A stretch of DNA of 64,000 bases from Candidatus Aminicenantes bacterium (GCA_963743205.1 CAVUOW010000004.1:133327-197326); one strand, 5' to 3'. Positions 33,562 through 58,605 are shown, counted from the stretch's first letter. Translations and numbers: made by a program. Notes: generated by a model from the sequence alone, not told the origin.

Positions 33562-33771
33562 GGGGTCGGACCACAGAAATACCCATAATAATCAGTAGTT
33601 TAAGTCCAGTTTTGACTGCCAAATTGGCCTTAAGTACGCGTTTCTGGGGGCAAAAACGCACCCGGCCGCATATCCACTTTTGGGCCAAAAAAGCGCGATA
33701 TAAGGCAGCTTCGGGCATCGAAAAATGGGCTAAATAGAAGAAAGATATAGTGATTCCTGTGGTCCGACCCC
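33562..33771 (+). mobile_element. MITE family 1, copy A (210 bp)
   Basis: GGGGTCGGACCACAG at 33562-33576 and CTGTGGTCCGACCCC at 33757-33771. AT-rich interior with no ORF. Starts 1 nt after the nitroreductase stop. Confidence 0.85.
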
Positions 33772-33794
33772 ATAGACGGCCATAGACGGACGGC

Positions 33795-33823
33795 TTGACT
33801 GGGAATCATGCGGATGATATATA
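33795..33823 (+). promoter_or_regulatory. sigma70-type promoter TTGACT-17 nt-TATATA
   Basis: Lies 50 nt upstream of the 33873 start and just outside MITE copy A. Confidence 0.45.
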
Positions 33824-33872
33824 AACATCACGGCGCGAGGGGCGCCGAGACGCCACTACAAGAGAGGGAAGC

Positions 33873-34670
33873 ATGAAAAAAATACGTGTCGTCCAGATCT
33901 CGCTGCTTGCAGTCCTCGTCTGCCTCGTCTTCGCCGCCGGCCAGGCGCGGGCCGACGTGTTCATGAAGCAGAAGACGCATACGGACGCGTTCCAGATGAT
34001 GGGCAAGAGCCAGCCGGCGAAAGACGAGATCATGACCTTTTGGCTGGGGGAGAACAAAGTCCGGACGGACATGGAGGGCGCGAAAACCTCATCGATCCTT
34101 CTCTCCGACAAGAAGATCCTGTACATGATCGACCACAACAAGATGCAGTACGCGGAGATGTCTCTCGATTTCGACAAGATGATCGGCGACGCGACGGCCG
34201 CGGGGGCCGGGGACGACCCGGACAAAGCCAAGGCCATGGAGAAGATGCCCGGCTTCATGAAGAACATGATGAAGGGCGCCATGGGCGACATGTCGGCCAA
34301 GGTGACCGAAACCGGCGAGACGAAAAAGATCGGCGATTGGAACTGCCGCAAGTACCTCATCGAGACGAACATGGGCATGGCCGGGACGACGGCGTCCGAG
34401 GCCTGGGCTACCGAGGACCTCAAGATCGACTACACGATAGCCTTCACGGCCGCCAACGCCACGGCGGCCAGCATGCCGGGCTTCGAGAAGATCATCCAGG
34501 AGATGAAGAAGGTCAAGGGTTTCGTCGTTTCCCAGACGAGCACCATCAAGATCATGGGTTCCGAGATCAAGTCGAGTTCCGAGCTCATCGAAGCCGGGAA
34601 CAAGGACGCCCCGGCCGGCAACTACGACGTTCCTGCCGGCTATAAAAAAGTCAAATCGATGGGCCGCTGA
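33873..34670 (+). CDS. secreted hypothetical protein (DUF4412-like)
   Basis: 265 aa with a signal peptide MKKIRVVQISLLAVLVCLVFAAGQARA. Met/Lys/Asp-rich. Family call is from memory only. Confidence 0.5.
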   Translation: MKKIRVVQISLLAVLVCLVFAAGQARADVFMKQKTHTDAFQMMGKSQPAKDEIMTFWLGENKVRTDMEGAKTSSILLSDKKILYMIDHNKMQYAEMSLDFDKMIGDATAAGAGDDPDKAKAMEKMPGFMKNMMKGAMGDMSAKVTETGETKKIGDWNCRKYLIETNMGMAGTTASEAWATEDLKIDYTIAFTAANATAASMPGFEKIIQEMKKVKGFVVSQTSTIKIMGSEIKSSSELIEAGNKDAPAGNYDVPAGYKKVKSMGR

Positions 34671-34747
34671 ACCCCGACTCCTTGATCCCTCCTTGCCGGT
34701 TGTGTTGGTGTGGCGATGGGACCTGGCCCCGATCGAGCTCGCCGAGA

Positions 34748-34813
34748 CTTTATTAGACATCAGACGTCCGTATAAATCAAAAAAAGCGCAAAGCTCAGTT
34801 TGGTCAGACCCCA
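34748..34813 (+). mobile_element. MITE family 1, truncated right-end remnant (copy F)
   Basis: An AT-rich stretch ends in TGGTCAGACCCCA (34801-34813), a 12/13 match to the right terminus TGGTCCGACCCCA. No left terminus is present. Confidence 0.45.
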
Positions 34814-34829
34814 AAGGGCTATGGGGGGA

Positions 34830-36518: not shown

Positions 36519-36527
36519 GTTCTCCTC

Positions 36528-36766
36528 CTTGCATTGGGGTCGGACCACCTTGCATTGGGGTCGGACCACAGCAATATTAATATTAATCAGGACTTTGGGT
36601 CCAATCTTTGGGCACTATTCGGCTTAAAACCCGTGTTTTTGGTGGCAAAAACGCACTCAATCACTTATTCATTTTAGGGGCCAAAAAGGGCCAGTTAAGG
36701 CCGTTTTTGCCCTTAAAAAGAGGTCTAAGTAAAAGAAAAATATAGTTATTGCTGTGGTCCGACCCC
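36528..36766 (+). mobile_element. MITE family 1, copy B (210-bp unit at 36557-36766 plus a 21-bp tandem duplication of its left end)
   Basis: CTTGCATTGGGGTCGGACCAC occurs twice in tandem (36528-36548 and 36549-36569). The right terminus is at 36752-36766. Confidence 0.85.
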
Positions 36767-38788
36767 CAACTTGATCATGACTGCGGCGCCGCCGCCGGGG
36801 GCGAGCTTGAGCGTGAGCCGGTCGCCGGCTTTGACCGTCTTCTTTGTGATCTCGAGGCTCGTCGCTTCCACCGCCGCGTCGGCGCCGTCGGCGAAGATCG
36901 TCGCCTCATAGTCTCCCGCGCCGAGGAAATCGAGCGGCAGGTCGATGTCGCGCGCGTCCCAGCCGGTCATGGCGCCGATCCACCAGCCGTCCCCACTGCG
37001 CCGCGCGATCGCGACGAACTTCCCCGGCAGGCCGCCGAGCACCTTCGTGTCGTCCCAAACGGTCGGCACCTTCTCGATGAACTCGAGCCCCGGCTGGCCC
37101 TCGTACGCCTCCGGGTAATCGGAGACCATGACCAGCGGGCTTTCGTAGACCACATACATCGCCAGCTGGTGGGCCCTCGTGCCCTGCGCCATCGGCGCGA
37201 TGTCCTTCGCCTCGAACTGGCCCCGCGCCGCGTTCCTCATCGCCCCGGGCGTGAAGTCCATCGGCCCGGCCAGCATCCGCGTGAACGGGATGGTCACGTC
37301 GTATTCGGGCGTGATGCGGTCGCTCCACTTGCTGTACTCGAGCCCCATGACGCCCTCCCGCGTCAGGAGGTTGGGGTAGGCCCGCCGCAGCCCTGTCGGC
37401 TTGAACGCGCCGTGGAAGTCGACCGTGAGCCGGTGCGCGGCCGCCGTCTTCACCACCTTCTCGTAATAGTCGACCATGTCCTGGTCGTCGCGGTTCATGT
37501 AATCGACCTTGACGCCGGCGGCGCCCCATTTCTCGTAAAGGGCCATGGCCTCGTCCATGTGCCTCCCGAGGGCCTGCCACTCGACCCACAGCAGCGTCGC
37601 CACGCCCTTCGACTTCCCGTACGCGATGATCGCCGGGACGTCGACCTCGGGCCGGTAGCGCAGGATGTCTTCGATCCTCCCGTCCTCGGACATCGGCGCC
37701 CACCCGGCGTCGACGAGCATGTACTCGAACTTGTGCCTGGCCGCGAAATCGATGTAGTGCTTCATCGTGGCCGTGTTCATGCCCGGCTTGAACGCGACGC
37801 CCGTGGCGTAGCTTCCCGACCACCAGTCCCAGGCCGCCTTGCCCGGCTTGATCCACGACGTGTCGGCGATCGCGCACGGCGCGCTCAAGTCCAGAATGAG
37901 GTAGTTCCTCTCGATGAACCGTGCCGGGTCCGGCCCGACCATGACCACCCGCCAGGGGGTCGATTTCGGCGTCGTGCCCTTCACCGGCTGATCGAACCTC
38001 CGGCGCGGAGCGACGGACAGCCGCGCGGTCAGCGCATTGGGGACGCCCGCGACCCCGCCCACATAAAGCCCGGCGTAATCGGTGAGATCGGCCTCGAGCA
38101 GCGCGGCGTAGATCCCCGCCCCCGGCATCTCGACGAGGAGCGGCAGATTGACGAGCGAGGCCGGCTTGATGTCCTTGAGCGGCGTCCGGGCGTATTCTCC
38201 CTCGTTGCTCGTGTCCCAGCGCCCGAGGTTCAAGGCGAAGGCCGAGGCGTCCTGGGCGAAGTAGAATCCCGTCGTCTCCGACGCGATCGTGAACTCGCCG
38301 ATCGCCTCCTGCTTCGGCAGCACATAACGGAAGGCGACCCCCTCGTCATACGCCCTCAGCACGACGTCCATCTTCCGGTTGGGCGCGTTCTTCTCGCGCA
38401 GGGAGACCACGAGCTCGCTGTACTTGTCCGGCACCGTCCTCTTGGCCCCGAACGCGTTCTCCCAAGTCGAGTCGTTCGACCGCTTCTCCGACCCGACGAC
38501 CTCGAAGTCATGGTCGAGCGCATCGGCGCCCGCAAGATCCAGTCCGAGCGGCGAATCGGCCAAGACCGGCGCGCCCTTGTAGGTCACCCGATAGTAGAGC
38601 CGCTCGCCCGCGAGATACGGCTGCGGCTTGGCCGCCAGCGCGATCGATATGGTCAGGCTCCCGTCCGGCGATGAGACGGCCATCGGCCGCGTTCCCACCC
38701 CCGCGTCCTTCGCCGGGGCGCAGGCCCCGCCTATCAGCGTTGCGACCGTCAGAACGAGACCGGCGGCCAGTCTTTGCTTAGCGCACAT
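36746..38788 (-). CDS. glycoside hydrolase family 97 (alpha-glucosidase-like)
   Basis: 680 aa. Lipoprotein-like N-terminus, then SPDGSL..YRVTYKG.., GAAGVKVDYMNRDDQ and LTREGVMGLEY blocks typical of GH97. The last 6 codons and the stop lie in the MITE B terminus. Confidence 0.85.
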   Translation of the reverse strand: MCAKQRLAAGLVLTVATLIGGACAPAKDAGVGTRPMAVSSPDGSLTISIALAAKPQPYLAGERLYYRVTYKGAPVLADSPLGLDLAGADALDHDFEVVGSEKRSNDSTWENAFGAKRTVPDKYSELVVSLREKNAPNRKMDVVLRAYDEGVAFRYVLPKQEAIGEFTIASETTGFYFAQDASAFALNLGRWDTSNEGEYARTPLKDIKPASLVNLPLLVEMPGAGIYAALLEADLTDYAGLYVGGVAGVPNALTARLSVAPRRRFDQPVKGTTPKSTPWRVVMVGPDPARFIERNYLILDLSAPCAIADTSWIKPGKAAWDWWSGSYATGVAFKPGMNTATMKHYIDFAARHKFEYMLVDAGWAPMSEDGRIEDILRYRPEVDVPAIIAYGKSKGVATLLWVEWQALGRHMDEAMALYEKWGAAGVKVDYMNRDDQDMVDYYEKVVKTAAAHRLTVDFHGAFKPTGLRRAYPNLLTREGVMGLEYSKWSDRITPEYDVTIPFTRMLAGPMDFTPGAMRNAARGQFEAKDIAPMAQGTRAHQLAMYVVYESPLVMVSDYPEAYEGQPGLEFIEKVPTVWDDTKVLGGLPGKFVAIARRSGDGWWIGAMTGWDARDIDLPLDFLGAGDYEATIFADGADAAVEATSLEITKKTVKAGDRLTLKLAPGGGAAVMIKLGVGPQQ

Positions 38789-38879
38789 CGAAAACCTCCA
38801 TTATCTTTTCTTTAGAGCGGTGACTGTTCCCGGCGATTATATCTGCCCGTCCGGACCAACGCAATGGCGTCCCGCCGGC

Positions 38880-38907
38880 TTGACTTTCGGCGCGGCCATG
38901 TGCTAAT
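38880..38907 (+). promoter_or_regulatory. sigma70-type promoter TTGACT-16 nt-GCTAAT
   Basis: Lies 20 nt upstream of the ATG at 38928. Confidence 0.35.
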
Positions 38908-38927
38908 CCATCCGTCAACGGGGAAAC

Positions 38928-40160: not shown

Positions 40161-40179
40161 CTCATCAAGGAGGGCGGCC

Positions 40180-42780: not shown

Positions 42781-44976
42781 ATGCCGGCGCGTGCTCTTCT
42801 CGACGAGGAGGTCCGATTGAGGCGCCGGAGGAAAGCATCGGCGGCCGCCGTGGCCGCGATCGCCCTCGTCTGCGCTGCCCTCGGCTTGTGCTCCTGGGCC
42901 TGCCGCCGCAGCGCGGTCAGGCCGATCCGGATCGAACGTCAAGGGGCGGAATTTCGGCTCGTCTATGAGGGAAAGCCGATCGGGCTTTTTGCCGCCCCGG
43001 AGCTGGCCGCGAGCGGCCTGCCGCGGATCGAAGTCGGCAAGGCCGATGAGGCCGGATGGCGTCGCGTCCGTCTCAGCTGGGACGTCTCCCGCGCCGTCGC
43101 CCAGGATGAGCTTTCCGTCCGCTTCGATGTCGGCTTCGAACCGGACTTTTGGTGGGCCCCGCACCTCGCGCCCGAAGAGGGTTATGTCGTCGCCCAGCAC
43201 GTTTTCCGTTCGCCCGCGGTCATCGCGGCGCGCGGCCCGCTGACGCTCGCCGTCGTTCCGGACCTCGACATCGCCGGGAAGAACCCGGCGAATCCGTGGT
43301 TCCTCGACTACGATGCCGTGAACCGGAAGATGTGGCTGGGCCTGGTCAAGACCGAGATCCCCGAGCACGTCCTTTTCAAGAAGGCGCCGGGAATGACCTT
43401 CGCTGCGGGGACAGTCGAGCTGGGCTTCTACGTCGGCGCTTTCAGCGACCGCGGGGAGGTCCGGGATCCGTGGCGCGAGGTCGCGGCCTTCCTTTGGAAA
43501 CGCTGGGGCAGCCCGCTCTCCGCCAAGGGCGAGCCCATCGCGGGCCGGCTCGAGCCCTATGTCCGCCGGACCTACGACTGGGCGTTCCACGGCTGGAGCA
43601 AGTACGTCTGGCAGGAATTCGAACTCGGCGGCCGGCGCGTCGGGGCACCCCAATTCATCGTCAACATCTCCCAATCGCCCAACTATCCCGGGCCGTGGTA
43701 CCAGCGGGAGTTCCTGTCGATCTGGAACCAGGCCTGGTTCTCGTCCCTGCGGAGCGCCTCGGGGCTCTACCGCTACGGGCGCTTCCTCGGCGGCGCGGAG
43801 GGCGAAGCGCTCCAGGCTAAAGCCCGCATGACGAAGGAGCTGGCCCTGGCCGCGCCCATGACGGACGGCATCTTCCCGGCCGTGATCGGCACGCCGAACG
43901 ACATCGTCGAGATCGGCGGCCAAGAGCTGCGCCGGCCGCGCGGCTGGGACGAGGCCCGCTGGTCGAACTCGGACCGGACCCCCGACGACCACGGCATCAC
44001 GCCGGATTGGTTCCACGTCCTCGACATGAGCTGGACGGCGCTTCTCATGCTGCGCTGGCACGACGAGCTCGAGAAGGACCCGCGGCTCCTCGACTACGCC
44101 CGGGCCTACGGCGAGAGACTCCTCGCGCTCCAGGACGATCGCGGCTTCTTCCCCGGCTGGCTTCACCCGACGACGCATGCGCCGGGCCCGGTGATGAACC
44201 GGACGCCGGAGACGAGCCTGAGCGCGACATTCCTGCTCAAGCTGACCGATGCGACCGGGGAGGCGAGGTTCCGCCAGGCGGCGCTCCGGGCCGTCGACGC
44301 CGTGGTGGCGGACATCGTCCCCGACGGCAACTGGCTCGATTTCGAGACCTACTGGTCATGCAGCGCCTGGGGACGGGACAAGTACCTGGACCGGAAGATC
44401 GAGCGCAATGCCTTGCACAAGCAGAACACGCTCTCGATGTTCTGGACCGCGGAGGCGCTGCTCGCGGCCCACAGAGCGACGGGCGAGAGGCGCTACCTCG
44501 ATTGGGGCCGGCGGACGATCGACGAGCTGTCCATGGCCCAGCAGGTCTGGCAGCCGCCCTTCATCTACGTCCCGGCCCTCGGCGGGTTCGGGGTCATGAA
44601 CGCCGACGGCGAGTGGAACGACTCGCGCGAAACGCTTTTCGCCGAGCTCTTCCTCGACTACGCCAAAGCGACGGGCGAGCCGGCCTACTCCGAGCGGGGG
44701 ATGGCCGCGCTCAAGGCTGGCTTCGTCATGATGTACTGCCCGGAGAATCCCGCGGTCAAGGCCATGTGGGAGAAGGTCTATCCCTGGTTCGGTCCGGCCG
44801 ATTACGGGTTCACTATGGAGAACTACGGCCACGGCGGCGTAACCAGCCCCGAAGGCGAAGGCATGGGCGTCTTCACGATCTACGATTGGGGCAACGGCGC
44901 GGCGGCCGAGGCGGCGATGCGCATCCTCGATCACTACGGCCCTCTCGAGATCAAGGAGTCGCCGCCGAAGCGCTAA
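42781..44976 (+). CDS. large hypothetical membrane-anchored/secreted protein, family not recognised
   Basis: 731-aa intact ORF with coding-like composition and an N-terminal hydrophobic anchor AAAVAAIALVCAALGL. An alternative TTG start at 42817 follows GAGGAGG. Confidence 0.6.
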   Translation: MPARALLDEEVRLRRRRKASAAAVAAIALVCAALGLCSWACRRSAVRPIRIERQGAEFRLVYEGKPIGLFAAPELAASGLPRIEVGKADEAGWRRVRLSWDVSRAVAQDELSVRFDVGFEPDFWWAPHLAPEEGYVVAQHVFRSPAVIAARGPLTLAVVPDLDIAGKNPANPWFLDYDAVNRKMWLGLVKTEIPEHVLFKKAPGMTFAAGTVELGFYVGAFSDRGEVRDPWREVAAFLWKRWGSPLSAKGEPIAGRLEPYVRRTYDWAFHGWSKYVWQEFELGGRRVGAPQFIVNISQSPNYPGPWYQREFLSIWNQAWFSSLRSASGLYRYGRFLGGAEGEALQAKARMTKELALAAPMTDGIFPAVIGTPNDIVEIGGQELRRPRGWDEARWSNSDRTPDDHGITPDWFHVLDMSWTALLMLRWHDELEKDPRLLDYARAYGERLLALQDDRGFFPGWLHPTTHAPGPVMNRTPETSLSATFLLKLTDATGEARFRQAALRAVDAVVADIVPDGNWLDFETYWSCSAWGRDKYLDRKIERNALHKQNTLSMFWTAEALLAAHRATGERRYLDWGRRTIDELSMAQQVWQPPFIYVPALGGFGVMNADGEWNDSRETLFAELFLDYAKATGEPAYSERGMAALKAGFVMMYCPENPAVKAMWEKVYPWFGPADYGFTMENYGHGGVTSPEGEGMGVFTIYDWGNGAAAEAAMRILDHYGPLEIKESPPKR

Positions 44977-45192
44977 ATGGGGGACACAATACCTATTCCC
45001 CATTTAAAAGCTGATGTTGACCCCGGGGCGAGCTCGAGAGGTCGTCCATCGCGCCGCTAAATCGGGGACGCAATACCCATTTCCGATTTAATCGGGGAGG
45101 AGAAAGGGGGAGGAGACAGGGACATGTCCCTCGGGTTCCTGTCCCCGCCCGTTCTGTCTTTAATTGGGGAATAGGTATTGTGTCCCCGATTT
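44975..45192. repeat. nested cluster of three GGGGAC(A/G)CAATACC hairpin repeats plus an OMP-gene 3' remnant
   Basis: Units at 44975-45005 (+), 45059-45089 (+) and 45162-45192 (inverted). The outer two form an inverted pair around about 220 bp. A 14-bp palindrome AGGGACATGTCCCT lies at 45118-45131. Confidence 0.75.
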
Positions 45193-45847
45193 AAAATCCC
45201 AATTTGACCCCGAGGGCGAGCTCGAGCCCGTAGAGATGGAGCATGTTCTGGGCGAGCGGGTCATCGTCACGGATGGGGTAGGTCCTGCCCTCGTTCTCCA
45301 TCCAGGTCTTGACCAGGTTGTAGCGCCCTTTGAGGCAGACGGCGAGCTTTTGGGAGATCCGGACGTCCAGCCCCGCGCCGATCTGGAGAGCCAGGCGGTC
45401 TACGAAGACCCGGCGCGGCGTATCCGGGGGCCAGACGTCCGGCGCGTAGCCGAGGAACGTGAAGCCGATGCCCATCAGCGCGTACGGGAGGAGCCGTCCT
45501 TTGGTGAGCACATAGATCTGCTCGTTGATGAGCAGGGTCGTCATTGTCATCCGGCCCGCGGAAACGAGGCCCGCGGCGCCCGACTCGACGGGGACGCCGA
45601 ACCTCTCGAGGAAGAGCTCGATGCCCATCCTGTGGCCCGTCCTGAAAAATACGCCGCCGCCGTACTTCAGGCCGCTGCCGAATCCCGCTTCCCGGACGAA
45701 TACGGCTCCGGAATCGAGCTCGACCGCGAAGCGGGGGATGGCGCGATGGTCATCGCCCCGGACCGCGAGGGGCGTCAGGAGCAGGATCGACGCGAGCATG
45801 ATCCCGGCGCCGGCAGCCCGTTTCGCCGTGTGGGCCTTGTTCTTCAT
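45191..45847 (-). CDS. outer-membrane beta-barrel protein
   Basis: Signal peptide, alternating hydrophobic beta-strand pattern, and a C-terminal ..LELALGVKLGF with terminal Phe. Confidence 0.65.
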   Translation of the reverse strand: MKNKAHTAKRAAGAGIMLASILLLTPLAVRGDDHRAIPRFAVELDSGAVFVREAGFGSGLKYGGGVFFRTGHRMGIELFLERFGVPVESGAAGLVSAGRMTMTTLLINEQIYVLTKGRLLPYALMGIGFTFLGYAPDVWPPDTPRRVFVDRLALQIGAGLDVRISQKLAVCLKGRYNLVKTWMENEGRTYPIRDDDPLAQNMLHLYGLELALGVKLGF

Positions 45848-47397: not shown

Positions 47398-47419
47398 CGG
47401 AAATTGGTATTGTGTCCCC
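47398..47419 (+). repeat. 22-nt identical core CGGAAATTGGTATTGTGTCCCC, copy 1
   Basis: Ends 17 nt before ATG 47437 with AGGAGA in between. Contains TGGTATTGT, which is extended -10-like. Confidence 0.8.
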
Positions 47420-49512: not shown

Positions 49513-51354
49513 ATGTTCAAGATGAAGAAGCTGAAGATCGATCCGATCATCGTGCTCATCATGGCCGTCATTGCGGCCTTGCCGTTCCTGCCCTTCGCGT
49601 CTTCCCGATAGGGGAGCGCGGCGGTGCGGGCGCGGCGGCAGGGTCTTTCCGGCTCCGGCTCTCTCCCGATCGCTCACCGACGACGATGCCGCCTGGGTCC
49701 AGAAGACCCTGGCCGGGCTGACGCTGGAGAAGAAGATCGCCCAGATCATCACGGTGGACGCCGTCGGCGGCTATATCACGGACGACGATCCGCGTCTCGA
49801 CCGCTGGCTCTCCCTGGCCCGCGATCACGGGGTGGGCATGTTCGTCTTCTACGGCGGGACGCCACGCGACCGTCGCCCGCTTGCTCAACCGATTGCAGAA
49901 GGCCGCCGATATCCCGCTTCTCGTCAGCGCCGACTTCGAGGGCGGGCCGGGCCAGCAGGTGACGGGCGCGAGCGAATACCCGGCCAACATGGCCTTCGCC
50001 GCCGCCGGCTCCGACGATCTCATGTACCGAGCCGCCGCGGCCGCGGCCGTCGAGGGCCGGGCCATGGGCGTCCACCTGACGTACACGCCGGTCTGCGATA
50101 TCGCCTGGCGCCGCGGACAACCCGGGCCGAGCGTCCGCTCTTTCGGGGGCGATCTGGAGCTCCTCGGGCGCATGGTCAGGGCCTACGTCCGCGGCTACCA
50201 CGAGAACGGCATGCTGACGTCGGCCAAGCATCTTCCGGGACGGGGCGACGTCGAGAACATGCCGCAAAATCCCGGCTGGGCCTGGATCAACAAGCCGGCG
50301 GCGGACGTCGAAGCGGAGGAGTTCCGGGCATTCAAGCAGGGGATCGACGCCGGCGTCGATTTTGTCATGACCGAACACATCGCCGTGCCGCTCGGTGACC
50401 GGCGGGTCGGAGCTGCCGGCGAGCGTCGAGAAGAAGCTCGTCACCGGCTGGCTCAAGGGCAGGCTGGGATTCACCGGGGTCGTCACCTCGGACGACCTCT
50501 GGTACGACAACGTGATCGCGCGATTCGGGGCCGAGGAGGTGGCCGTGAAGGCCTTCGAGGCCGGCCACGACGTCATCCTCAAGCCGAAAGATCCGGTCAA
50601 GGCGATCGCGGCGCTCGCGGACGCGGTCCGGTCCGGCCGCATCCCGAAGAGCCGGGTCGACGAGGCCGTGAGCAAAGTTCTGACGCTCAAGGCCAGGCTT
50701 GGCCTGTACAAAGCTCGATTCGTGGACGAAGCGCGCGTCGGGGAGTTCGTCGGGACGGCGGCGCATCAGGCCATCGTCCAGGAGGCCGCCGACCGGTCGT
50801 TGACCATGCTCAAGAACGACGGTGTCCTGCCGTTGAGTGCGGCGGGTGCTGGCGCGGGCGCGGCGCGGAAGATCGTCAACATCAACGTCCAAAAGGTCGA
50901 CGGTGATCCCATGCCGGCCGCACTCGCGGCCAAGCTCGCGGCGGCGTTCCCGGGGACGAGGAGCTTCGCTCTGCGACCCGACATGGACGCGGCCTATTAT
51001 GAGACTGTCTGGAAAGCGGTGGGGGAGTCCGACGTCGTTGTGTTGTCGCTTTTCGTGGCCAGGAACAGGATGGGAGACGCGGCGCCTTTCCGTGACGGCG
51101 ACCTCGCCTTCTTGAGAAGGGTCATCGCGGCCAAGCCGAAAGCAGTCGTGGCCATGGCCTACGGCAATCCTCAGCTCGTCAGGAAGATCCCCGACGTTCC
51201 CGCATTCCTCGTCGGCTACGGCGAGCGCGGCTGGTTCGGGAACCAGGGGGTCTATTTCGATTCGTTCATCAAGGCCCTCAAGGGCGAGCTCAAGCCCTCA
51301 GGGCGCCTGCCCGTCCACGTCAGCATGCAGTACCCCATCGGAGCTGGTCTGTAA
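49513..51354 (+). pseudogene. glycoside hydrolase family 3 (NagZ-like beta-hexosaminidase), with three frameshifts
   Basis: Signal MFKMKKLKIDPIIVLIMAVIAALPFLPFA. GH3 blocks are spread over successive frames: KKIAQIITVD, ADFEGGPGQ, SFGGD, KHLPGRGD, GFTGVVTSDDL. Frame changes lie near 49600, 49865 and 50395. Confidence 0.75.
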
Positions 51355-51367
51355 GGGGGTTTGTAAG

Positions 51368-51622
51368 GGGGTCGGACCACAGGAGTTTCTTTACTTTTCA
51401 GCAACTTAGTTAAGATTTTAGTTCGTTTTTAGCCTTATTTATGGCACTTTTGGCCCCAAAAAGACCTAAGATAGCGGAAGGGACTTTGGGAATATCTCGC
51501 CCCAGAGTCCCGGATCCTAATCTTTCATTTTCGGGGTTAAAAACCCCTGAGTTAAGCCAAAATATCTGCAAAAAATGGTGTTAAGTTATTGATAAATAAT
51601 TGAATTGCTGTGGTCCGACCCC
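51368..51622 (+). mobile_element. MITE family 1, copy C (255 bp)
   Basis: Termini at 51368-51382 and 51608-51622. The 11-bp TGTAAGGGGGT is duplicated at its left edge (51350-51360 and 51362-51372). Confidence 0.85.
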
Positions 51623-51631
51623 ATTAATCTC

Positions 51632-53179
51632 TTACTCAGGCCAGAGCCGGAACATAGCGACCCCATGGCGGGCGACGTAGGCCGTGAAGGAGCCGTCGAA
51701 GACGCCAATGTCCTTCCGCCGCCACAGGTCGCGGACCTTTTGCGGCCCAGAGGCGCCGAGGTCGGACCAGAGGGCGGTGACCTCGGCCAGCCGGTCGCCG
51801 CGGTTGAACAGGCCGAAGGCCTTCGAGCCATCCTCGAGCTCACGCACCCAGACCTCGATAGCGCCGTTCTTCGAGACGCGTCGGCCGGGCTTTCCGAGCG
51901 GGTCCTGATCGACGTCGATAATATCGTCGTTCGTGAGCAGGCCGAGGGTGAAGTCGTCGAGGCGGGTGATGTCGCCGCTGAAAATGAGCGGCGCCGCGAC
52001 GAGCGACCACAGCGAGACGTGGGTGTATTGTTCGTTCGGCGAGAGGGGCGAGGCCTCGTTGCCGCCCTCCTTGTCATCGACGAAGACGGAGCTGAGGATG
52101 CCGATGAGGAGATAATCGGGGTCGTTCCAGCCGCCCGGGCCGCCGTAGCGGTGGAGCTCGTTCGTGGAGTAGACGTCGAAGCCGTCGCGGAAGAGGTTGC
52201 CGACGACGTCGTGGCCGAGGTCGCCCGCGGTGCGCCAGCTGTTGCCGCCGACCTCGCGGCCCCATTCCCAGACGTTGCCCATGCCGTACTGGCACAGGTT
52301 GAGGACGATGTCGCGCGGCTGCTTGGCGATGATGGAGCTGATGAGGCGGTAGGGCTTCTGGAGCTCGTCGCGGCTCTTCTCGTCCGTGGCGATGCTTCCG
52401 TAGGAGCACCAGTCGTACTTCAGGAAATCGAAGCCCCACTCGACGAAGCGCCGGACGTCGAGCTCCTCATGCTGCCAGGCCGCGGTGTAGCCCGCGCAGG
52501 TCGTCGGGCCGGGCGAGGTGTAGATGCCGGCCTTGAGGCCCTTCGCATGAATGTAGTCGGTCATGGCCTTCATGTCCGGGAAGCGGCCATTGGCGTTGAT
52601 CATGCCGTGGGGGTCGCGGGGCTCGCCGCGGAGGGAGGGATCGTCGGCCTCGGGGCGGACGGACCAGCAGTCGTCGATGTTGACGTACTGGTAGCCGTGG
52701 TCGATCATGCCGGTCGAGACCATGGCGTCCGCGGCGCGGCGCATGATCTCGTCGGTGACGCGGTTCTCCCAGACGTACCAGCTGTTCCAGCCCATGTGCG
52801 GCGTCAGGGCCAGGGTGTGGCCGCAGACGATCTTGAACGGCCGCGAGTCTGTGCCGAGGCGGTTGGTCGCGGTGAAGGTGACGGGATAGCTGCCAGGAGC
52901 GGCGAGAGCGCCGGTGATCTGGCCGGTCGCCGTGTCGAGCATGAGGCCTTCGGGGAGGTTCTCGACGGCGAAAGTCATCGGCCGCTCGCCCGTCGCCGGG
53001 ATGGTGAAAAGGAATGGCGATCCGGGACGGACGCCGAAGACGCGGGCGCCGTTGACGCGAGGCTCCGGGCCAGGCTTAGGAGTGAGGACGATCTTCGGCT
53101 CGGCGGCGAGAGCGACCGAAACGAGCGCTATAGCAGCGATGGCGCCGGTCAGGATCGAGGCGCGGGTCTTTTTGTTCAT
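51632..53179 (-). CDS. alpha-galactosidase, glycoside hydrolase family 27
   Basis: TPHMGWNSWY and YQYVNIDDCW catalytic-region motifs, with an N-terminal Ig-like region and signal peptide MNKKTRASILTGAIAAIALV. ATG 53179 is preceded by GAAGGAG. Confidence 0.85.
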   Translation of the reverse strand: MNKKTRASILTGAIAAIALVSVALAAEPKIVLTPKPGPEPRVNGARVFGVRPGSPFLFTIPATGERPMTFAVENLPEGLMLDTATGQITGALAAPGSYPVTFTATNRLGTDSRPFKIVCGHTLALTPHMGWNSWYVWENRVTDEIMRRAADAMVSTGMIDHGYQYVNIDDCWSVRPEADDPSLRGEPRDPHGMINANGRFPDMKAMTDYIHAKGLKAGIYTSPGPTTCAGYTAAWQHEELDVRRFVEWGFDFLKYDWCSYGSIATDEKSRDELQKPYRLISSIIAKQPRDIVLNLCQYGMGNVWEWGREVGGNSWRTAGDLGHDVVGNLFRDGFDVYSTNELHRYGGPGGWNDPDYLLIGILSSVFVDDKEGGNEASPLSPNEQYTHVSLWSLVAAPLIFSGDITRLDDFTLGLLTNDDIIDVDQDPLGKPGRRVSKNGAIEVWVRELEDGSKAFGLFNRGDRLAEVTALWSDLGASGPQKVRDLWRRKDIGVFDGSFTAYVARHGVAMFRLWPE

Positions 53180-53211
53180 CGGCGGAGACTCCTTCACGAC
53201 GGCGTGCCGGT

Positions 53212-53238
53212 ATTATAACAAGTTAAAGAAGGGGTCAA
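53212..53238 (-). promoter_or_regulatory. TATAAT box with -35-like TTGACC contributed by the family-2 element terminus
   Basis: Minus strand reads TTGACC (complement of 53233-38, inside the terminus)-15 nt-TATAAT (complement of 53212-17), 33 nt upstream of the GH27 ATG. The spacer is short. Confidence 0.3.
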
Positions 53239-53323
53239 ACCTTAATTCTTATAATTTCCTATGACTTCGCCGGACCGGCCCGACCAGGTCTTCCCGAAAT
53301 TATAAGAATTAAGGTTTGACCCC
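53231..53323. mobile_element. 93-bp miniature inverted-repeat element, family 2, copy 2
   Basis: 28-bp perfect inverted termini GGGGTCAAACCTTAATTCTTATAATTTC. The interior is unrelated to copy 1. Confidence 0.75.
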
Positions 53324-53343
53324 TTCAGGCTTGCCGGGGAATT

Positions 53344-53365
53344 CGGAAATTGGTATTGTGTCCCC
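53344..53365 (+). repeat. 22-nt identical core CGGAAATTGGTATTGTGTCCCC, copy 2
   Basis: Ends 16 nt before ATG 53382 with GGAGG in between. Confidence 0.8.
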
Positions 53366-53381
53366 AAATTGGAGGCGAATC

Positions 53382-56300
53382 ATGACCAAGTCCCGACGCC
53401 TTGTCCGCACGATCTCCCCGATCCTGCTCCTAGCGCTCGTCTCTGTGGCGATCCTCGTCGCCGCGACCGCGCAAAGCGGCCCGGGAGACCGCGCCCCCCG
53501 AGTTGACTGTCAAGTGCCGTCCCGACCCGCATCCCTGGCCGCCCCAACTCAGACCTCTTCAGCTCAGGTCCAGGCCAAGAACCCCTACGCGCCTGACACC
53601 GTCGAGCCGGGGTCGGTCGAGGCCATCGCCAAGGACACGACCGAGCCGCGCTTCGGCAATCCTTGGGTCGCTTACCTGCCCGATTCGGCCACTGTGCCCT
53701 CGCCGGCGGAATATCTCGGCCATGCCGTCGGCGCCTCCGGCGAGCTCTCCTCGACGGCCAAGATCTACGGCTACTTCCGCAAGCTTGCCGAGACTTCGCC
53801 CCGCGTCCGCGTCCAGACGATCGGCCGGACCGAGGAGGGCCGCGAGATCCTCCTCGCCGCCGTCGCTGACGAAGACGGCATCCGCGACCTCGACCGCCTC
53901 AAGGAGGCGACCGCCGCGCTGGCCGACCCGCGCAAGACGACACCCGAGGCCGCCGAAGCCGTCATCGCCTCCGCGCGCCCCGTCTATTATTTCAACGCCG
54001 GGCTCCATTCGACCGAGACCGGCAGCCCTGAGATGGTCATGGAGATGGCCTACCGGCTGGCCGTATCCGACCAGCCGATGATCCGCAAGATCCGCGGCGA
54101 GGTCCTGGTCCTGATCAACCCCGTCTCGGAGCCCGACGGCCGCGACAAGGCGGTCGACTGGTTCTACCGCTACCTCAAGGGCAAAACGGACTTCGACGCG
54201 CTCCCTCCCGATTCGCCGCCCTACTGGGGCTTCTACGTCTTCCACGATAATAATCGCGACTCGCACCAGGAGTCGCTGCAGCTGTCCAAAGCCGTCGGCC
54301 GGATGTTCTTCGAGTATCACCCGACGGTCATCCACGACCTCCACGAGTCGATCCCGCTTCTCCAGACCTGGAACGGCACGGGGCCGTTCAACGTCAACAT
54401 CGACCCGATCCTTCTCAACGAGTGGTTCGCCATGTCGATGGCCGAGCTCGGCGCGCTGACGTCGGCCGGCATGCCCGGCGTCTGGACGTGGGGCTTCAGC
54501 GACGGCTGGGAGCACGTCTTCCTCGATTCGATCGGCGTCAACCATAACAGCATCGGCCGCGGCTACGAGACCTTCGGCAACGGCACGGCCGAGACGGTCG
54601 AGCGCATCCTGAGGCCGGACGAGGAGCGCTACGCCGGGCGCCCGGTCACGAGCCGGGAATGGTACCGGCCGATGCCGCCGCCGCGCAAGTTCATGTGGTC
54701 CCTGCGCGACAACACGAACTACATGGAGAGCGGCTGCCTCGCGGCGCTCGATTACACGGCCAAGAACGCCAAGGAGATGCTGCGCGATTTCTATCGCAAG
54801 AGCTACAACTCCTGGCAGAAGGGCGTCAAAGGCGAGCCGTACGCGTTCGCCATCGCGGCCGAGCAAGGCGACAGGCGGCGGGTGGCCGACATGGTCAGCC
54901 TGCTGATGCAGCACGGCATCGAGGCCGGGAAGGCGACCGCCGCGTTCAAGGTCGCGGAAGGGGAGTTCCCCGCGGGGACTTACATCGTGCGGCTCGATCA
55001 GCCGTATCGAAATTACGCCGTGGACCTGCTCACGCCGCAGATCTTCCCGCCGGACGCCGTGTATGAGCCCTACGACGACGTGTCGTGGTCGCTTCCGATC
55101 CACTACGGGCTCGAGGCCAAGCGCATCAACGACGTCAAGATCAAGGATGTGGCGCTCGAGGCCCTCAAGGTCGGCTTCGCGACGTCAGGGAACGTGAACG
55201 GAGCGGGGCCGGTGCTCTTATTGAAAGACACGGGCCAGGAGGGACTGCTCGCGCTGCGCGCGCGCCTCGCCGCGTTCAAGGTCGAGATCGCCGAGAAGGC
55301 GTTCAAGGCCGGGGACAAGGATTATCCCGCCGGGTCATGGATCATGGCCGACCAGAAAGGGCTCGCGGAAGCGGTCAAGCGGGCGGCGGCGGAGCTGGCG
55401 CTCGATTTCGAAAGCGCCGCGGCGGCGCCGGATGTCGCGCGCCACGAGTCGAAGCTGCCGCGCCTGGCCGTCTGGCACACGTGGGCGGATACGGAAGCCG
55501 TCGGCTGGATCCGATTCGTCCTCGACCGGGAAAGAGTCCCTTATACGTACATCCGCGACGAAGATGTGCGCGCCGGCCGCCTCAAAGACCGCTTCGACGT
55601 CATCATCTTCGGCCACAACTATCTCGATCTGCAGGACCAGATCCTGGGCGTCGACAAGAAGTGGGGCCCGCTGGCCTACAAGAAGACGAAAGAGACGCCC
55701 AACCTCGGCGTTCCCGACGCGTCCGAGAACATCACCGGGGGGATCGGCTGGGCCGGCATGGCCAAGCTCGAGGAGTACCTCAACGCCGGCGGCGTGTTCG
55801 TGACGCTCGGCAACGGCTCGGCGATCGCCCTTCAGGGCGGGCTCGTCAGGGACGTCTCTCGGAGGGGCGGGTCCGTGTTCACGCCCGGGTCGGAGCTCAA
55901 GGCGAAGTTCGTGCGGCCGGACCATCCCCTGGCATACGGCTTCCCGGAGGTGACGTCGGCCTTCCGGTCGATGCTGCCCGTTTACGATATCGCCCGGTCA
56001 GGTCGGGGAGGGGTCGTTCTGCAGTGGGGCGCGAAGCTCAGGGCCGAGGATAGGGAAGAAGAGAAACCGGACGCCGCGAAGGCGACGGACGTGGCGGCAG
56101 GGGCGGCAGGTACTGCGGCTGCGGCGGCGGGCACGGCGGGCGCGAAAGAGTCCGGGACGGCCGGTGCGCCGGGGCAAGCCGCGACCGCAACGGCGAAAAA
56201 AGAAGAGGTCAAGATGCTCGTCAGCGGCGCCATCAAGGGCGATGACGAGCTCGAGGGCCGCCCCGCTATCCTGGATCTCCCGGCCGGCAAGGGTCGCGTC

Positions 56301-56411
56301 ATCGCCTTCCTTTTCAACCCGATCCACCGCGACCTCAACCGCTCCGACCATCGCTTCCTCTGGAACGTCCTGTTGAATTGGGAAAAGATTGGGGTCGGAC
56401 CACAGCTTTAG
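53382..56411 (+). CDS. M14-family zinc carboxypeptidase-like protein (large, secreted)
   Basis: 1009 aa. Signal/anchor, GLHSTETGSPE (HxxE zinc motif) and NPVSEPDGRD. The last 6 codons and the stop lie in the MITE D terminus (..GVGPQL*). Confidence 0.75.
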   Translation: MTKSRRLVRTISPILLLALVSVAILVAATAQSGPGDRAPRVDCQVPSRPASLAAPTQTSSAQVQAKNPYAPDTVEPGSVEAIAKDTTEPRFGNPWVAYLPDSATVPSPAEYLGHAVGASGELSSTAKIYGYFRKLAETSPRVRVQTIGRTEEGREILLAAVADEDGIRDLDRLKEATAALADPRKTTPEAAEAVIASARPVYYFNAGLHSTETGSPEMVMEMAYRLAVSDQPMIRKIRGEVLVLINPVSEPDGRDKAVDWFYRYLKGKTDFDALPPDSPPYWGFYVFHDNNRDSHQESLQLSKAVGRMFFEYHPTVIHDLHESIPLLQTWNGTGPFNVNIDPILLNEWFAMSMAELGALTSAGMPGVWTWGFSDGWEHVFLDSIGVNHNSIGRGYETFGNGTAETVERILRPDEERYAGRPVTSREWYRPMPPPRKFMWSLRDNTNYMESGCLAALDYTAKNAKEMLRDFYRKSYNSWQKGVKGEPYAFAIAAEQGDRRRVADMVSLLMQHGIEAGKATAAFKVAEGEFPAGTYIVRLDQPYRNYAVDLLTPQIFPPDAVYEPYDDVSWSLPIHYGLEAKRINDVKIKDVALEALKVGFATSGNVNGAGPVLLLKDTGQEGLLALRARLAAFKVEIAEKAFKAGDKDYPAGSWIMADQKGLAEAVKRAAAELALDFESAAAAPDVARHESKLPRLAVWHTWADTEAVGWIRFVLDRERVPYTYIRDEDVRAGRLKDRFDVIIFGHNYLDLQDQILGVDKKWGPLAYKKTKETPNLGVPDASENITGGIGWAGMAKLEEYLNAGGVFVTLGNGSAIALQGGLVRDVSRRGGSVFTPGSELKAKFVRPDHPLAYGFPEVTSAFRSMLPVYDIARSGRGGVVLQWGAKLRAEDREEEKPDAAKATDVAAGAAGTAAAAAGTAGAKESGTAGAPGQAATATAKKEEVKMLVSGAIKGDDELEGRPAILDLPAGKGRVIAFLFNPIHRDLNRSDHRFLWNVLLNWEKIGVGPQL

Positions 56412-56545
56412 GAACATAATCAACAATTTAGGTCCAGTTTTGGGGATCGCATGGGGTTAAATGTGGTGTTTTTGGGCCCAAAAATGAAAGGGCTTTTCGG
56501 AACTTTGATTTGATCGCGATCGTTAAGATTGAAACGAATCGATGA
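56391..56545 (+). mobile_element. MITE family 1, copy D (left end only; right boundary approximate)
   Basis: Left terminus at 56391-56405. The interior is homologous to copy A, including the perfect palindrome TTTTTGGGCCCAAAAA (56469-56484). No right terminus. Confidence 0.65.
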
Positions 56546-56567
56546 CACTCATGGACACGGAGGGATC

Positions 56568-58394
56568 GTGAAAGATCAGAACCTGGTGCCCCTTTGCCTG
56601 GCAGTATGCCTTGCCCTCGTCACGGCCACGGCATTTGCTGACCCTGGCACTCCCTCGTCGGCGCCCGTCCGCCTGGCTCCATCGAGCGGCCAATCTCCGG
56701 ACCCGAACACTGCGGCCGTTACTGAGACCAAGACCTATCTTCGGCGCCTCGAGAAGCTCGGCTTTGCGGGGGTCGTCCTTGTGGCTAAAGGCGATGTGCC
56801 CCTGGTGGCCGAGGGCTTCGGCCTGGCCGATCGGGAACACGGAATAAGATGGACCCCCGGCTCTGTATCGGATATCGGTTCGATCACCAAGCAGTTCACC
56901 GGCGCGGGCATTCTCAAGCTGGAAGAGGACGGCAAGCTGAGCGTCGTCGATCCCATCTCCAAATACTTCGACGGCGTCCCGGCCGACAAGTCGGCGATCA
57001 CCCTTCACCAGCTCCTAACACATTCCTCCGGCCTCGGAGACCCCGACATCGGCGACTTCGATCCCGTTCCGCTCGGCGAATACCTGAAACAGGTCTTCGC
57101 CAAGCCCCTCCTCTTCGCTCCAGGGAAGGGATACACCTATTCAAACGCCAATTTCAGTCTTCTCGGTGCCATCATCGAGAAGCTCTCCGGCAGGACCTAC
57201 GAGACCTTCGTGCGCGAGCGGCTTTTCCTGCCGAACGGCATGTACGAAACAGGATATACCATGCCGGCCTGGGGTGAAAGCCGTTTCGCCCAGGGTTATG
57301 AAGCCGATGGAGGGCGTTGGGGCACGTTCCTCGAGCGCCCGACGGCCGCCGATGGGCCTCATTGGGCGCTTCGCGCCAACGGCGGCATCCACACCACGGT
57401 CTATGATATGCTCCGTTGGGCGCGAGCCCTTCTCACCGGCCGCGTCCTCGCGCCCGAGTCGATGAAGAAGCTTTGGACGCCCCACGTCAGCGAAGGCGGC
57501 GATACATACTACGCGTACGGCTGGTCGATCGCCAAGGCGCCCGATGGGACGAAGATCGTCACCCATAACGGCGGCAACGGCATCTACTTCGCCGACCTGG
57601 CCATCGTGCCGGACACCGGACTCGTCGTCTTTCTCATGACCAACGTCATCGCCGAAAACCGGTCGGCGAATTCGCTCCTCGAGCAGATCGGGATGCGCTT
57701 CCTCGCGGGCCAGCCCTATCCGGACATTCCCGAGGTCAAGGATATGAGCGCGGCCGCGCTCGCCTCATTCGCCGGGACGTACAGCCTCCCGGCCGGTGCT
57801 GGAGCCTATCGCCTATCCTTGGACGGCCAGGCCCTCTTCATCGAAGCGGAAGGACGGAAGGCTTTCGCGCTTCTGAATTCTGTCAGCGACGCCGAACCCG
57901 GCCGCCTCGACAAGCTATCCAAGCTCATGGCGGGCATTATCGCCGCGAATATGAAGGGGGATTTCATCCCGCTCTCCAAAGCCTACGGCGGGGAAGTGGC
58001 CCCGGAGCGCTTGAAGGCCCGTTGGGCGGATCTGATCGCGGAGAGCGAGAAGGTCCGTGGCCGCTTCCAGCGCTTTGAGGTCCTGGGCACGGCCCGGACC
58101 CAGGACTGGGACGAGTCCGTCATCCGTTTCTTCTGCGAGAGAGGCACGGTCGACCTGACCTACGTCTGGGACCTCAAGGAGGAAGGCCGTCTCCGCGGCC
58201 GGTCGGCACGCGGCCTGACCGTGCGGATGCGCCTCTATCCTTCGGGCGAACGGGACTTCTTCACTTGGGATGGAGGGATCCGGCCGCCTAAGGCCGTCCA
58301 TATCGAGGCGGGCCCTGACGGCAACCTGCGCCTCAAGCTGGGCGATGTGGCGACCGCCGCCGTGAGGTCTAATGGGGTCGGACCACAGCAATAA
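56568..58394 (+). CDS. beta-lactamase-fold serine hydrolase
   Basis: SITK (SxxK) motif in GSITKQFTGAGILKL, and a signal peptide from GTG 56568 (VKDQNLVPLCLAVCLALVTATAFA). The track start at 56529 is possible. The C-terminus ..NGVGPQQ* lies in the MITE E terminus. Confidence 0.75.
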   Translation: MKDQNLVPLCLAVCLALVTATAFADPGTPSSAPVRLAPSSGQSPDPNTAAVTETKTYLRRLEKLGFAGVVLVAKGDVPLVAEGFGLADREHGIRWTPGSVSDIGSITKQFTGAGILKLEEDGKLSVVDPISKYFDGVPADKSAITLHQLLTHSSGLGDPDIGDFDPVPLGEYLKQVFAKPLLFAPGKGYTYSNANFSLLGAIIEKLSGRTYETFVRERLFLPNGMYETGYTMPAWGESRFAQGYEADGGRWGTFLERPTAADGPHWALRANGGIHTTVYDMLRWARALLTGRVLAPESMKKLWTPHVSEGGDTYYAYGWSIAKAPDGTKIVTHNGGNGIYFADLAIVPDTGLVVFLMTNVIAENRSANSLLEQIGMRFLAGQPYPDIPEVKDMSAAALASFAGTYSLPAGAGAYRLSLDGQALFIEAEGRKAFALLNSVSDAEPGRLDKLSKLMAGIIAANMKGDFIPLSKAYGGEVAPERLKARWADLIAESEKVRGRFQRFEVLGTARTQDWDESVIRFFCERGTVDLTYVWDLKEEGRLRGRSARGLTVRMRLYPSGERDFFTWDGGIRPPKAVHIEAGPDGNLRLKLGDVATAAVRSNGVGPQQ

Positions 58395-58605
58395 GCTATC
58401 TTATCAGTGATTTATCACTGTTTTCGGCCTCCAAAAAGGGCTTATCTTGATCTTTTTTGGGGTAAAAACGACCTCATCCCGAATTTGCAAAGGCAATCGT
58501 CTGCGCTTCTGTTTTTAGGGCTAAAAACACCTCGGTTAGGCCGAAAACAGGCCAAAAAATGGGCGTATCATATTGATAATATTCTGATAGCTGTGGTCCG
58601 ACCCC
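58374..58605 (+). mobile_element. MITE family 1, copy E (232 bp)
   Basis: Termini at 58374-58388 and 58591-58605. A perfect TATAAT (58612-58617) lies 6 bp outside the right end. Confidence 0.85.

Follow-up and report, generated by a model that had tools for sequence, protein, structure and literature searches.

What are the AT-rich repeats that recur beside the genes of an otherwise GC-rich stretch of a Candidatus Aminicenantes bacterium genome (CAVUOW010000004.1:133327-197326), and which enzyme, if any, do they belong to? We analysed this whole stretch of 64 kb, hereafter the window, in which an earlier reading made from the DNA alone (the sequence-only reading) had described a family of miniature inverted-repeat elements with identical 15-bp termini. 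We conclude that the elements are probably gene-less derivatives of a TIRtron, that is, of a transposon in which the gene for a RAYT-like Y1/HUH transposase (TIRYT) lies between long terminal inverted repeats (TIRs). The family is a further example of this already described and little-studied TIRtron/TIRYT class. The description of RAYT-like genes flanked by long terminal inverted repeats rather than REPs is due to Di Nocera et al. (2013, PMC3733652), who gave the elements the name TIRtrons and the proteins the name TIRYT.

We counted the termini by exact matching and by matching with ≤2 mismatches of the 15-mer GGGGTCGGACCACAG, using shuffled sequences as the control. The window contained 9 exact termini and 11 termini with ≤2 mismatches, whereas the shuffles gave an expectation of 0.26 with ≤2 mismatches allowed. 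The exact termini form four inward-facing pairs and one lone terminus (Table 1). The paired termini bound elements c1, c2, c3 and c4 of 210, 210, 255 and 232 bp, respectively, with interiors of 37–43% GC versus 65.4% in the window as a whole. An nhmmer profile built from the four copies recovered all four and also the unit at 56391, which we call p5. These results reproduce the family as first described, with its four complete copies of 210–255 bp, their identical 15-bp termini and their AT-rich interiors. Two details have to be corrected. The unit at 56391, described as a truncated left end, is a complete solo unit, and the right-end copy proposed at 34748-34813 was rejected as a sixth member, since neither the whole-copy nor the half-unit profile matched it at E≤10 and its tip agrees with the terminus only in part (Table 1). 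The site orthologous to 34748-34813 in another genome holds a short GGGGTCAA-type palindrome, and the AT-rich stretch can be no more than a degenerate unit belonging to a related family.

The evidence for the class of these elements comes from gene-carrying elements with the same ends. A scan for the 15-mer in one genome per species gave 119 loci, mostly chance matches in GC-rich genomes. About 20 of these loci carried the same AT-rich subterminal pattern, and their hosts were Aminicenantes, Acidobacteria, Planctomycetaceae, Kiritimatiellae, Lentisphaerae, and some Gamma- and Deltaproteobacteria; the terminus is thus found with its AT-rich pattern in several phyla. At five independent loci (L068, L096, L128, L142, and L134), none of them in the source genome, the only gene enclosed by the termini encodes a Y1/HUH tyrosine transposase. 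The elements that carry this sole gene between GGGGTCGGACCACAG-type termini are 945–1,057 bp long. The longer element with the same termini and a transposase, for which the sequence-only reading proposed a search, therefore exists in related genomes, and its transposase is of the Y1 type. The 15-mer is also conserved in many Streptomyces (among L003-L118, e.g. L014, L038, and L069), where it is followed by CATG.. and GC-rich sequence; there a conserved gene of the opposite strand appears to begin in it (ATG CTG TGG TCC GAC CCC), and the match is unrelated to the repeats. The TIRtron at L068 lies directly downstream of a candidate tRNA gene (4717-4810), a tRNA by appearance.

The proteins of L068 and L096 matched the Pfam family Y1_Tnp (E=2.9e-10 and 1.1e-5, respectively) and scored 76.3 and 66.8 bits against the NCBIfam model REP_Tyr_transpos, for which the cut-off is 80. 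They are 38% identical to each other, whereas their termini differ by a single base, in the left end of L096. The transposase family comprises 6,669 clusters at E≤1e-10. An alignment of 48 homologues (A3) showed that H87 and H89 of the HUH motif and R131 are invariant and that an RY motif with the presumed catalytic tyrosine is conserved. The AlphaFold model of P0121 (pLDDT 82.6) was closest to the E. coli RAYT-REP complex 4ER8 (E=1e-6, TM 0.75), and the next structural matches were the TnpA proteins of IS608 and ISDra2. A search of PDB sequences with the TIRYT was negative, so that the fold search alone tied the protein to RAYT. The C-terminus of the TIRYT is a conserved helical region of about 100 amino acids. 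Some TIRYTs, P0173 being an example (..GVGPQEIP), end by reading into their own terminus.

We compared the halves of the window elements to determine the repeated unit. Outside the 15-mer, the pairwise identities of half-units were 52.6% between left halves, 55.5% between right halves, and 52.5% between left and right halves. The profile also matched every complete copy on the reverse strand, with E of about 1e-25. Because left halves resemble right halves as much as they resemble other left halves, each complete element is a quasi-palindromic tail-to-tail doublet of one unit of about 105 nt, and the inverted repeat is this modular unit of about 105 nt, not 15 bp. The uniform left-to-right polarity that had been ascribed to the copies was not found; co-orientation could be demonstrated for c1 and c2 only (64% and 70%). 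As the elements lack a consistent polarity, the case that was built on it for a transcribed or protein-bound element falls.

The modules of the unit were mapped in alignment A2, which contains 31 units from the window and other genomes of several phyla (Table 1). From the terminus inwards they are the invariant 15-mer, a box that fits the IHF core consensus WATCAANNNNTTR (as given in PMC9452768 and PMC10380432), a GGCyTTAA box, and a T5-GGSCC-A5 palindrome. The IHF-consensus box at +28 was exact in 7 of the 31 units and had ≤1 mismatch in 17 of the 31, whereas shuffles gave 0.01 and 0.30, respectively. The A/T-tract palindromes reported for the window, including the perfect one in p5, were found again and are conserved across phyla. 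Their T/A core is nearly invariant in the aligned units, and covariation in the outer stem was moderate (0.212 versus 0.148 in shuffles; 3 of 500 shuffles reached 0.212), with zero slide giving the best value. A REP-like hairpin inside one unit was ruled out: single units folded no better than shuffled sequence (z −2.6 to +1.0). The doublets contain inverted arms of 25–45 nt, and c2 folded as a whole single-stranded doublet at −50.5 kcal/mol (z=−8.8).

The boxes and palindromes of the window units recur at both ends of the TIRtrons. Because of these shared modules, the window doublet appears to be a TIRtron left end and a right end joined tail to tail with the gene missing, and p5 appears to be a single TIRtron end. 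Likewise, the conserved internal palindromes probably form part of the transposon end architecture, because they are also found at both ends of the gene-carrying elements.

Table 1. Features of the window and of the loci with gene-carrying elements. Positions are those of the window unless a unit or a locus is named.
Feature	Position	Strand	Description	Evidence or context
c1	33562..33771		doublet, 210 bp, two inverted ~105-nt TIR units; termini 33562+/33771-	nhmmer E=1e-56
c2	36557..36766		doublet, 210 bp; termini 36557+/36766-	exact termini, profile match
c3	51368..51622		doublet, 255 bp; termini 51368+/51622-	exact termini, profile match
p5	56391..56495 (end approximate)	+	solo TIR unit; lone terminus 56391+	half-unit profile E=2.7e-23
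c4	58374..58605		doublet, 232 bp; termini 58374+/58605-	exact termini, profile match
Not confirmed as member	34748..34813	-	AT-rich, tip GGGGTCTGACCAAAC matching 12/15	20 nt from C69 peptidase stop
Invariant terminus	unit positions 1-15 from terminus		GGGGTCGGACCACAG	alignment A2
IHF-consensus box	unit positions 28-40		[AT]ATCAANNNNTTA = IHF core consensus WATCAANNNNTTR	alignment A2
GGCyTTAA box	unit positions ~65-72		GGCCTTAA	alignment A2
T5-GGSCC-A5 palindrome	unit positions ~77-98			most of 31 units, several phyla
IHF-consensus exact match	56418..56430	+	AATCAACAATTTA	28 nt from p5 terminus
IHF-consensus exact match	51582..51594	-	TATCAATAACTTA	c3 right unit, 29 nt from terminus
Perfect T5-GGGCCC-A5 palindrome	56469..56484		TTTTTGGGCCCAAAAA	p5 positions 79-94
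21-bp tandem duplication	36536..36556	+	7 nt flank (ttgcatt) + 14 nt at 13/14 (GGGGTCGGACCACc)	c2 left junction
12-bp tandem duplication	51350..51361	+	tgtaagggggtt / tgtaagggggtc	c3 left junction, includes GH3 stop
Family B	44974-45193, 47406-47419, 53352-53365, 61645-61658		124-bp doublet 45064-45187 and several solo units	
L068 TIRtron	L068 4820-5764		945 bp, exact termini, single gene	Kiritimatiellae
L096 TIRtron	L096 2513-3561		1049 bp, single gene; left end GGGGTCAGACCACAG, one base off	Aminicenantia
L128, L142 TIRtrons			Y1 gene enclosed by exact termini	
L134 TIRtron			Y1 gene enclosed by variant termini GGGGTCAGACCCCAG	

The flanks of the window copies agree with the earlier observation that no target-site duplication is visible: none was found at the four complete copies, whose flanks are CTAAT/ATAGA (c1), GCATT/CAACT (c2), GTAAG/ATTAA (c3), and CTAAT/ATTGT (c4). 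Among 44 termini, the flank outside GGGG had A at −3 in 30 and T at −1 in 26, which gives the outward pattern ..A(−3) A/T(−2) T(−1). Models with a TA or AT duplication were rejected; AT stands on both sides in 2 of the 4 copies only, and the data read better as a preference for a ..AAT flank at each terminus.

In each window copy, at least one terminus is no more than about 20 nt away from a stop codon. The left terminus of c1 begins 1 nt past the stop codon of a nitroreductase gene (33558-33560), and c3 sits between convergent genes for a GH3 protein (stop 51352-51354) and a melibiase (stop 51632-51634). Three genes read six codons into a terminus (36746-36766, 56391-56411, and 58374-58394) and end in ..GVGPQ[QL] and stop. 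They are a GH97 gene on the minus strand (36746-38788), which extends into the right terminus of c2 (..LGVGPQQ-stop); an M14 peptidase gene (53316-56411), which terminates within p5 (..IGVGPQL-stop), a unit that itself lies about 70 nt upstream of the start of the following gene (56568); and a beta-lactamase-family gene (56568-58394), which extends into c4 (..AVRSNGVGPQQ-stop). The tail GVGPQ[QLE] always uses the same frame of the terminus, and the element supplies the stop; a further case lies in L143 (8748-8790). These tails arise by loss of a stop codon just outside the terminus, as is shown by orthologues that retain a stop at that place. In L143, where the GH97 protein is 93% identical in amino acids, the orthologue of c2 begins 1 nt past an intact TAA stop. 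The right terminus of c4 abuts the (A)TTGTGTATAAT box (58606-58620), which is conserved in L120, L124, and L126 upstream of the M3 peptidase gene (58650 in the window). As the terminus abuts this −10-like box, the insertion would have replaced whatever lay upstream of the box. An exact-protein look-up of the window M3 peptidase returned no record.

Tandem duplications of 10–21 bp, each made of the terminus tip and its flank, occurred at no fewer than (≥) 7 independent junctions. Those at the left junctions of c2 and c3 are listed in Table 1; the former has a shorter form in L143, the latter is also present in L120, and the right end of c3 in L121 has an 11-bp junction duplication. Further examples lie at L143 5953-5975, L128 2422-2500, L142 2373-2395, and L068 5765-5785. 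Such duplications may have been left behind where the transposase nicked and resealed the DNA.

The genes that flank the elements mark the organism as a member of Aminicenantes, and we examined orthologous sites in related contigs to estimate the age and mobility of the copies. L121, with about 97% DNA identity to the window, contains c3, p5, and c4, and the elements differ by 2.9–4.7% versus 4.5% at third codon positions. The 25 substitutions between L121 and the window all lie outside the 75 terminus positions; elsewhere, about 4% of the positions had changed. L143 contains c1 and c2; c2 differs by 15.7% versus 14–32% at third codon positions, 2 of 45 terminus positions had changed (about 16% elsewhere), and the orthologue of c1 is without one end. 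In L120 (86% amino acid identity), the c3 site holds a 45-nt stub with an exact terminus, the p5 site holds a stub of about 35 nt, and the c4 site is empty; the remnants at the p5 site are decayed in both L120 and L123. Over L121, L143, and L120, only 3 of 150 positions of orthologous termini had changed, whereas interiors changed at about the third-codon rate (4–16% or more). Selection, gene conversion, or GC-biased substitution may account for the conservation of the termini. The window copies appear to be old residents rather than recent jumps, and most of them are probably ancient.

The c4 site is a hot spot. A 33-nt pattern from the start of the M3 gene gave 0 matches in a metagenome scan, and a protein-based scan gave 19 further orthologous loci. 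The corresponding 3′ flank in them was occupied by the present family (family A), GGGGACACAATACC, GGGGTCAAACC, or a fourth short palindrome, or was unoccupied; the occupants of the site in other Aminicenantes lineages are repeats of families A, B, or D or C-like repeats, and some lineages have none. Because of this presence/absence polymorphism at the site, the elements in all probability are or were mobile.

Three repeat families share the window, which holds 19 termini of them in 64 kb. The second, family B, has termini GGGGACACAATACC, which fit the published GGGGWSAS pattern exactly, with six termini versus 0.15 expected (Table 1); in other Aminicenantes lineages, a perfect hairpin of about 55 bp represents this family at both the c4 and the p5 site. 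The third, with termini GGGGTCAAACCTTAATTCTTATAATTTC, forms doublets at 32857-32951 and 53228-53326 (95–99 bp) with arms of 31–33 nt that are 91–100% complementary, and a form related to it stands at the c4-equivalent site in L148. What is left of a family B terminus in L162 (860-900) directly adjoins a doublet of family A (tgtattgtatcccc/ctattcgtataat); from this abutment it follows that the families use a common spot, where one inserts into another or takes its place. In L120, an M14 peptidase/beta-lactamase gene pair occurs twice (3086-7800 and 10405-13800) with identical BLAST statistics; either the pair was recently duplicated in tandem or the assembly is at fault.

The TIRYT itself has a fixed place in Aminicenantes. 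The gene and its termini always lie between Adenine_glyco (tag) and Pyr_redox_2 genes (L096, L128-L133, L134-L141, and L142), and the order Adenine_glyco / TIRtron / Pyr_redox_2 is kept in four lineages whose proteins are 54–90% identical. This single conserved locus suggests that the TIRYT is vertically inherited in Aminicenantes. In L134, the TIRYT is diverged (54% identity) and the termini have changed alongside it to GGGGTCAGACCCCAG, which suggests that the enzyme and its ends co-evolve. A TIRYT kept in synteny at one locus recalls the domesticated RAYTs (PMC5581495). It is conceivable, and we propose it tentatively, that Aminicenantes harbour a REPIN-like replicator based on TIRYTs, with a locus-fixed and vertically inherited transposase, co-resident repeat families, preserved termini, and a conserved end architecture. 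The transposase locus would be the one flanked by the tag glycosylase and the Pyr_redox_2 oxidoreductase, the latter possibly sulfide:quinone oxidoreductase-like. The families GGGGTCGGACC, GGGGACACAATACC, and GGGGTCAAACC may be its co-resident populations at about one terminus per 3–4 kb, the resident termini may have been kept intact well beyond neutral expectation, and the end architecture conserved across phyla may imply a host-factor-assisted, hairpin-dependent mechanism.

A mechanism can be outlined by analogy with RAYT/REPIN and IS200/IS605 chemistry, from which we infer the hairpin intermediate, the position of cleavage, and the role of the inner modules. Single-stranded DNA would be the substrate of a TIRYT that is supplied in trans from a gene at another place in the genome. 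The doublet would fold back through its inverted units and bring together the two ..AAT/GGGG junctions, which the enzyme would nick through its tyrosine, and the element would be excised and re-inserted without a target duplication, preferentially beside an A/T-rich trinucleotide. Because A/T-rich trinucleotides in a genome of 65% GC are found mainly at stop codons, the termini would end up beside stop codons. The inner modules, namely the IHF consensus at +28, the GGCCTTAA box at about +65, and the palindrome at about +80, would serve as accessory sites that shape the end complex, with the palindrome presumably acting as either a hairpin or a duplex site.

Several observations weigh against a TIRtron origin or limit what it explains. 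No TIRYT homologue was found in the 64-kb window by tblastn; the earlier statement that the window lacks a transposase holds in this respect for the Y1 type, other transposase types not having been screened for. The first eight bases of the family A terminus, GGGGTCGG, fit GGGGWSAS at 7 of 8 positions; the left end of L096 and the ends of L134, both GGGGTCAG, fit at 8 of 8. The Pfam C-terminal helix-turn-helix (HTH) families Bac_DnaA_C, HTH_23, and HTH_28 were absent from six proteins at E≤5. The passages of the literature found that name TIRYTs (PMC3733652 and PMC6006769) report no biochemical test of a TIRYT. Because the palindrome covariation is only moderate, the palindrome may instead be a double-stranded protein-binding site. 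The window copies are only about 50% identical outside the termini, and c1, c2, c3, and p5 are common to lineages that differ by 14–32% at third codon positions; as the copies are shared with such diverged lineages, no recent transposition is demonstrated here. The comparison of filled and empty orthologous sites, proposed earlier as a means to define target duplications, succeeded to the extent that L120 has an empty c4 site; the exact insertion point was not defined, as an 11-nt segment of the spacer differs and the alignment is not clean enough.

These points have to be set against the other explanations of the family. The sequence-only reading had considered elements derived from Tn3, that is, TIMEs moved by a DDE Tn3 transposase that reads the GGGGTC..GAC end. 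The ends do resemble Tn3 ends (GGGGTCTGACGCTCAG versus GGGGTCGGAC-CACAG), and a TTA(A/C)G lying some 40 bp inwards is conserved. In gamma-delta, too, the terminal site has an IHF-type box beside it, as the terminus has here. The likeness of the window ends to those of Tn3, in GGGGTC.GAC outside and TTA.G about 40 bp in, is one that the TIRtron reading does not explain. However, the 5-bp target duplication is absent at all four complete copies, the five gene-carrying loci enclose only a Y1/HUH gene in an element of about 1 kb, which is too small for a Tn3 transposase, and no DDE_Tnp_Tn3 gene was seen beside any terminus examined. The lack of 5-bp duplications and the type of the enclosed gene rule this origin out in our judgement, leaving it a very slim chance. 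A slim chance is also all that we assign to the idea that another enzyme moves the elements and that the Y1 gene is a frequent passenger between the same ends. No experiment ties a TIRYT to its TIRs, and long inverted repeats of double-stranded appearance are atypical of Y1 enzymes, which normally read hairpins. Yet Y1 genes from two phyla, 38% identical, are each the only gene in a unit of about 1 kb with identical termini, and the termini of L134 have co-varied with its diverged TIRYT (54% identity), so that passenger status everywhere would be unparsimonious.

A further explanation, which we regard as unlikely, is that the elements are primarily host-functional sites, such as nucleoid-protein or IHF anchors or RNA hairpins at 3′ ends, and that their mobility is only historical. 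Every copy has a terminus beside the 3′ end of a gene, the IHF-consensus box and the palindrome keep fixed positions across phyla, resident termini change far less than interiors (0/75 versus ~4% in L121 and 2/45 versus ~16% in L143), and the TIRYT gene keeps its genomic neighbours from lineage to lineage, as domesticated RAYTs do. On the other hand, the interiors drift at about the third-codon rate, copies have been lost or truncated without consequence in sister lineages (c3 and p5 in L120; c1 in L143), and a site occupied here is elsewhere vacant or taken by families that are unrelated. Rfam gave 0 matches at the gathering score over the whole window, where a query had been suggested. A scan of 51-59 kb for sigma-70 promoters and intrinsic terminators found nothing above chance and no promoter within the elements; the single terminator-like match inside c4 (58530-58546) is within chance expectation. 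The lower decay of a GC-rich terminus could also result from GC-biased substitution. That the family is ancestral intergenic DNA and was never mobile has almost no probability: 4 of the 5 sites are common to related lineages, but several phyla carry this modular unit at loci unrelated to one another, and the c4 site is polymorphic in presence, absence, and family. The polymorphic c4 site and the cross-phylum distribution rule this explanation out.

The probable origin of the elements from TIRtrons bears on a class that, in the literature searched, is named only in PMC3733652 and PMC6006769, and it poses the question of how a hairpin-reading Y1 enzyme handles long inverted repeats. The present loci offer concrete material in the form of a 15-nt terminus that is invariant across phyla though the proteins are 38% identical, a defined ..AAT/GGGG junction, fixed-position accessory modules, and recurrent junction duplications, the last of which may be footprints of the reaction. 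They also explain oddities of annotation, namely AT-rich islands at gene 3′ ends and genes with ..GVGPQ[QL] tails, and suggest REPIN-like repeat populations with a syntenic transposase outside Proteobacteria. Bertels et al. (2017, PMC5581495) found flanking repeats in abundance for groups 2 and 3 of the RAYTs alone, in Gammaproteobacteria. If the REPIN-like proposal is true, the model of a domesticated transposase with its repeats, established for these groups, reaches a distant phylum and a different type of end.

Among known systems, the closest is the TIRtron/TIRYT class, as far as the published descriptions of it quoted here go. Shared features are a RAYT-like Y1 gene flanked by long inverted repeats that start with GGGG[AT][CG], a gene 3′ end that overlaps the TIR, and TIRs dispersed as singles, dimers, and clusters. 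The passages of PMC3733652 on TIRs state that many share GGGGWSAS and that some "moderately abundant" families occur as singles, dimers, and groups; here, the window contains four dimers and one single, and singles and tandem ends occur at other loci. Aminicenantes are not mentioned as a host in the class descriptions of PMC3733652 and PMC6006769. The present unit also differs in being modular and about 105 nt long with an IHF-consensus box and a T5-GGSCC-A5 palindrome, and in its density, with termini of three families side by side. Most TIRYTs belong to TnpA_REP subclass 2.1, with a C-terminal HTH-like extension, according to the account of the subclass by Quentin et al. (2018, PMC6006769), whereas no Pfam HTH was detected in the C-terminal part here. 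The 11-mer GGGGTCGGACC was found in the literature in unrelated papers only.

The REPIN-RAYT system (Bertels and Rainey 2011; PMC5581495) shares gene-less inverted doublets that fold into a long hairpin and old, vertically inherited copies between genes, mostly at 3′ ends, and probably also a related Y1 transposase at one conserved locus. It differs in its units, which are 20–40-nt GTAG-tagged REP palindromes, whereas the window unit is about 105 nt long, starts with GGGGTC, and has no fold of its own, and the doublets are AT-rich and 210–255 bp long. IS200/IS605 elements and their derivatives (PATEs) share the Y1/HUH fold, the lack of a target duplication, and a short A/T-rich sequence at the end. 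Their ends are not inverted repeats but unlike left and right subterminal hairpins read on one strand, whereas the window ends are inverted copies of one modular unit. The Tn3-derived TIMEs are of similar size and share the outer GGGGTC..GAC and the inner TTA.G of an end of about 40 bp, but they have 5-bp duplications and a DDE transposase, neither of which was seen here. Correia/NEMIS elements and the BIMEs with IHF sites (RIP/RIB) are likewise miniature, palindromic, and gene-adjacent with an IHF-consensus site; their termini are unrelated to those described here, Correia elements duplicate TA, and BIMEs are made of GTAG REPs.

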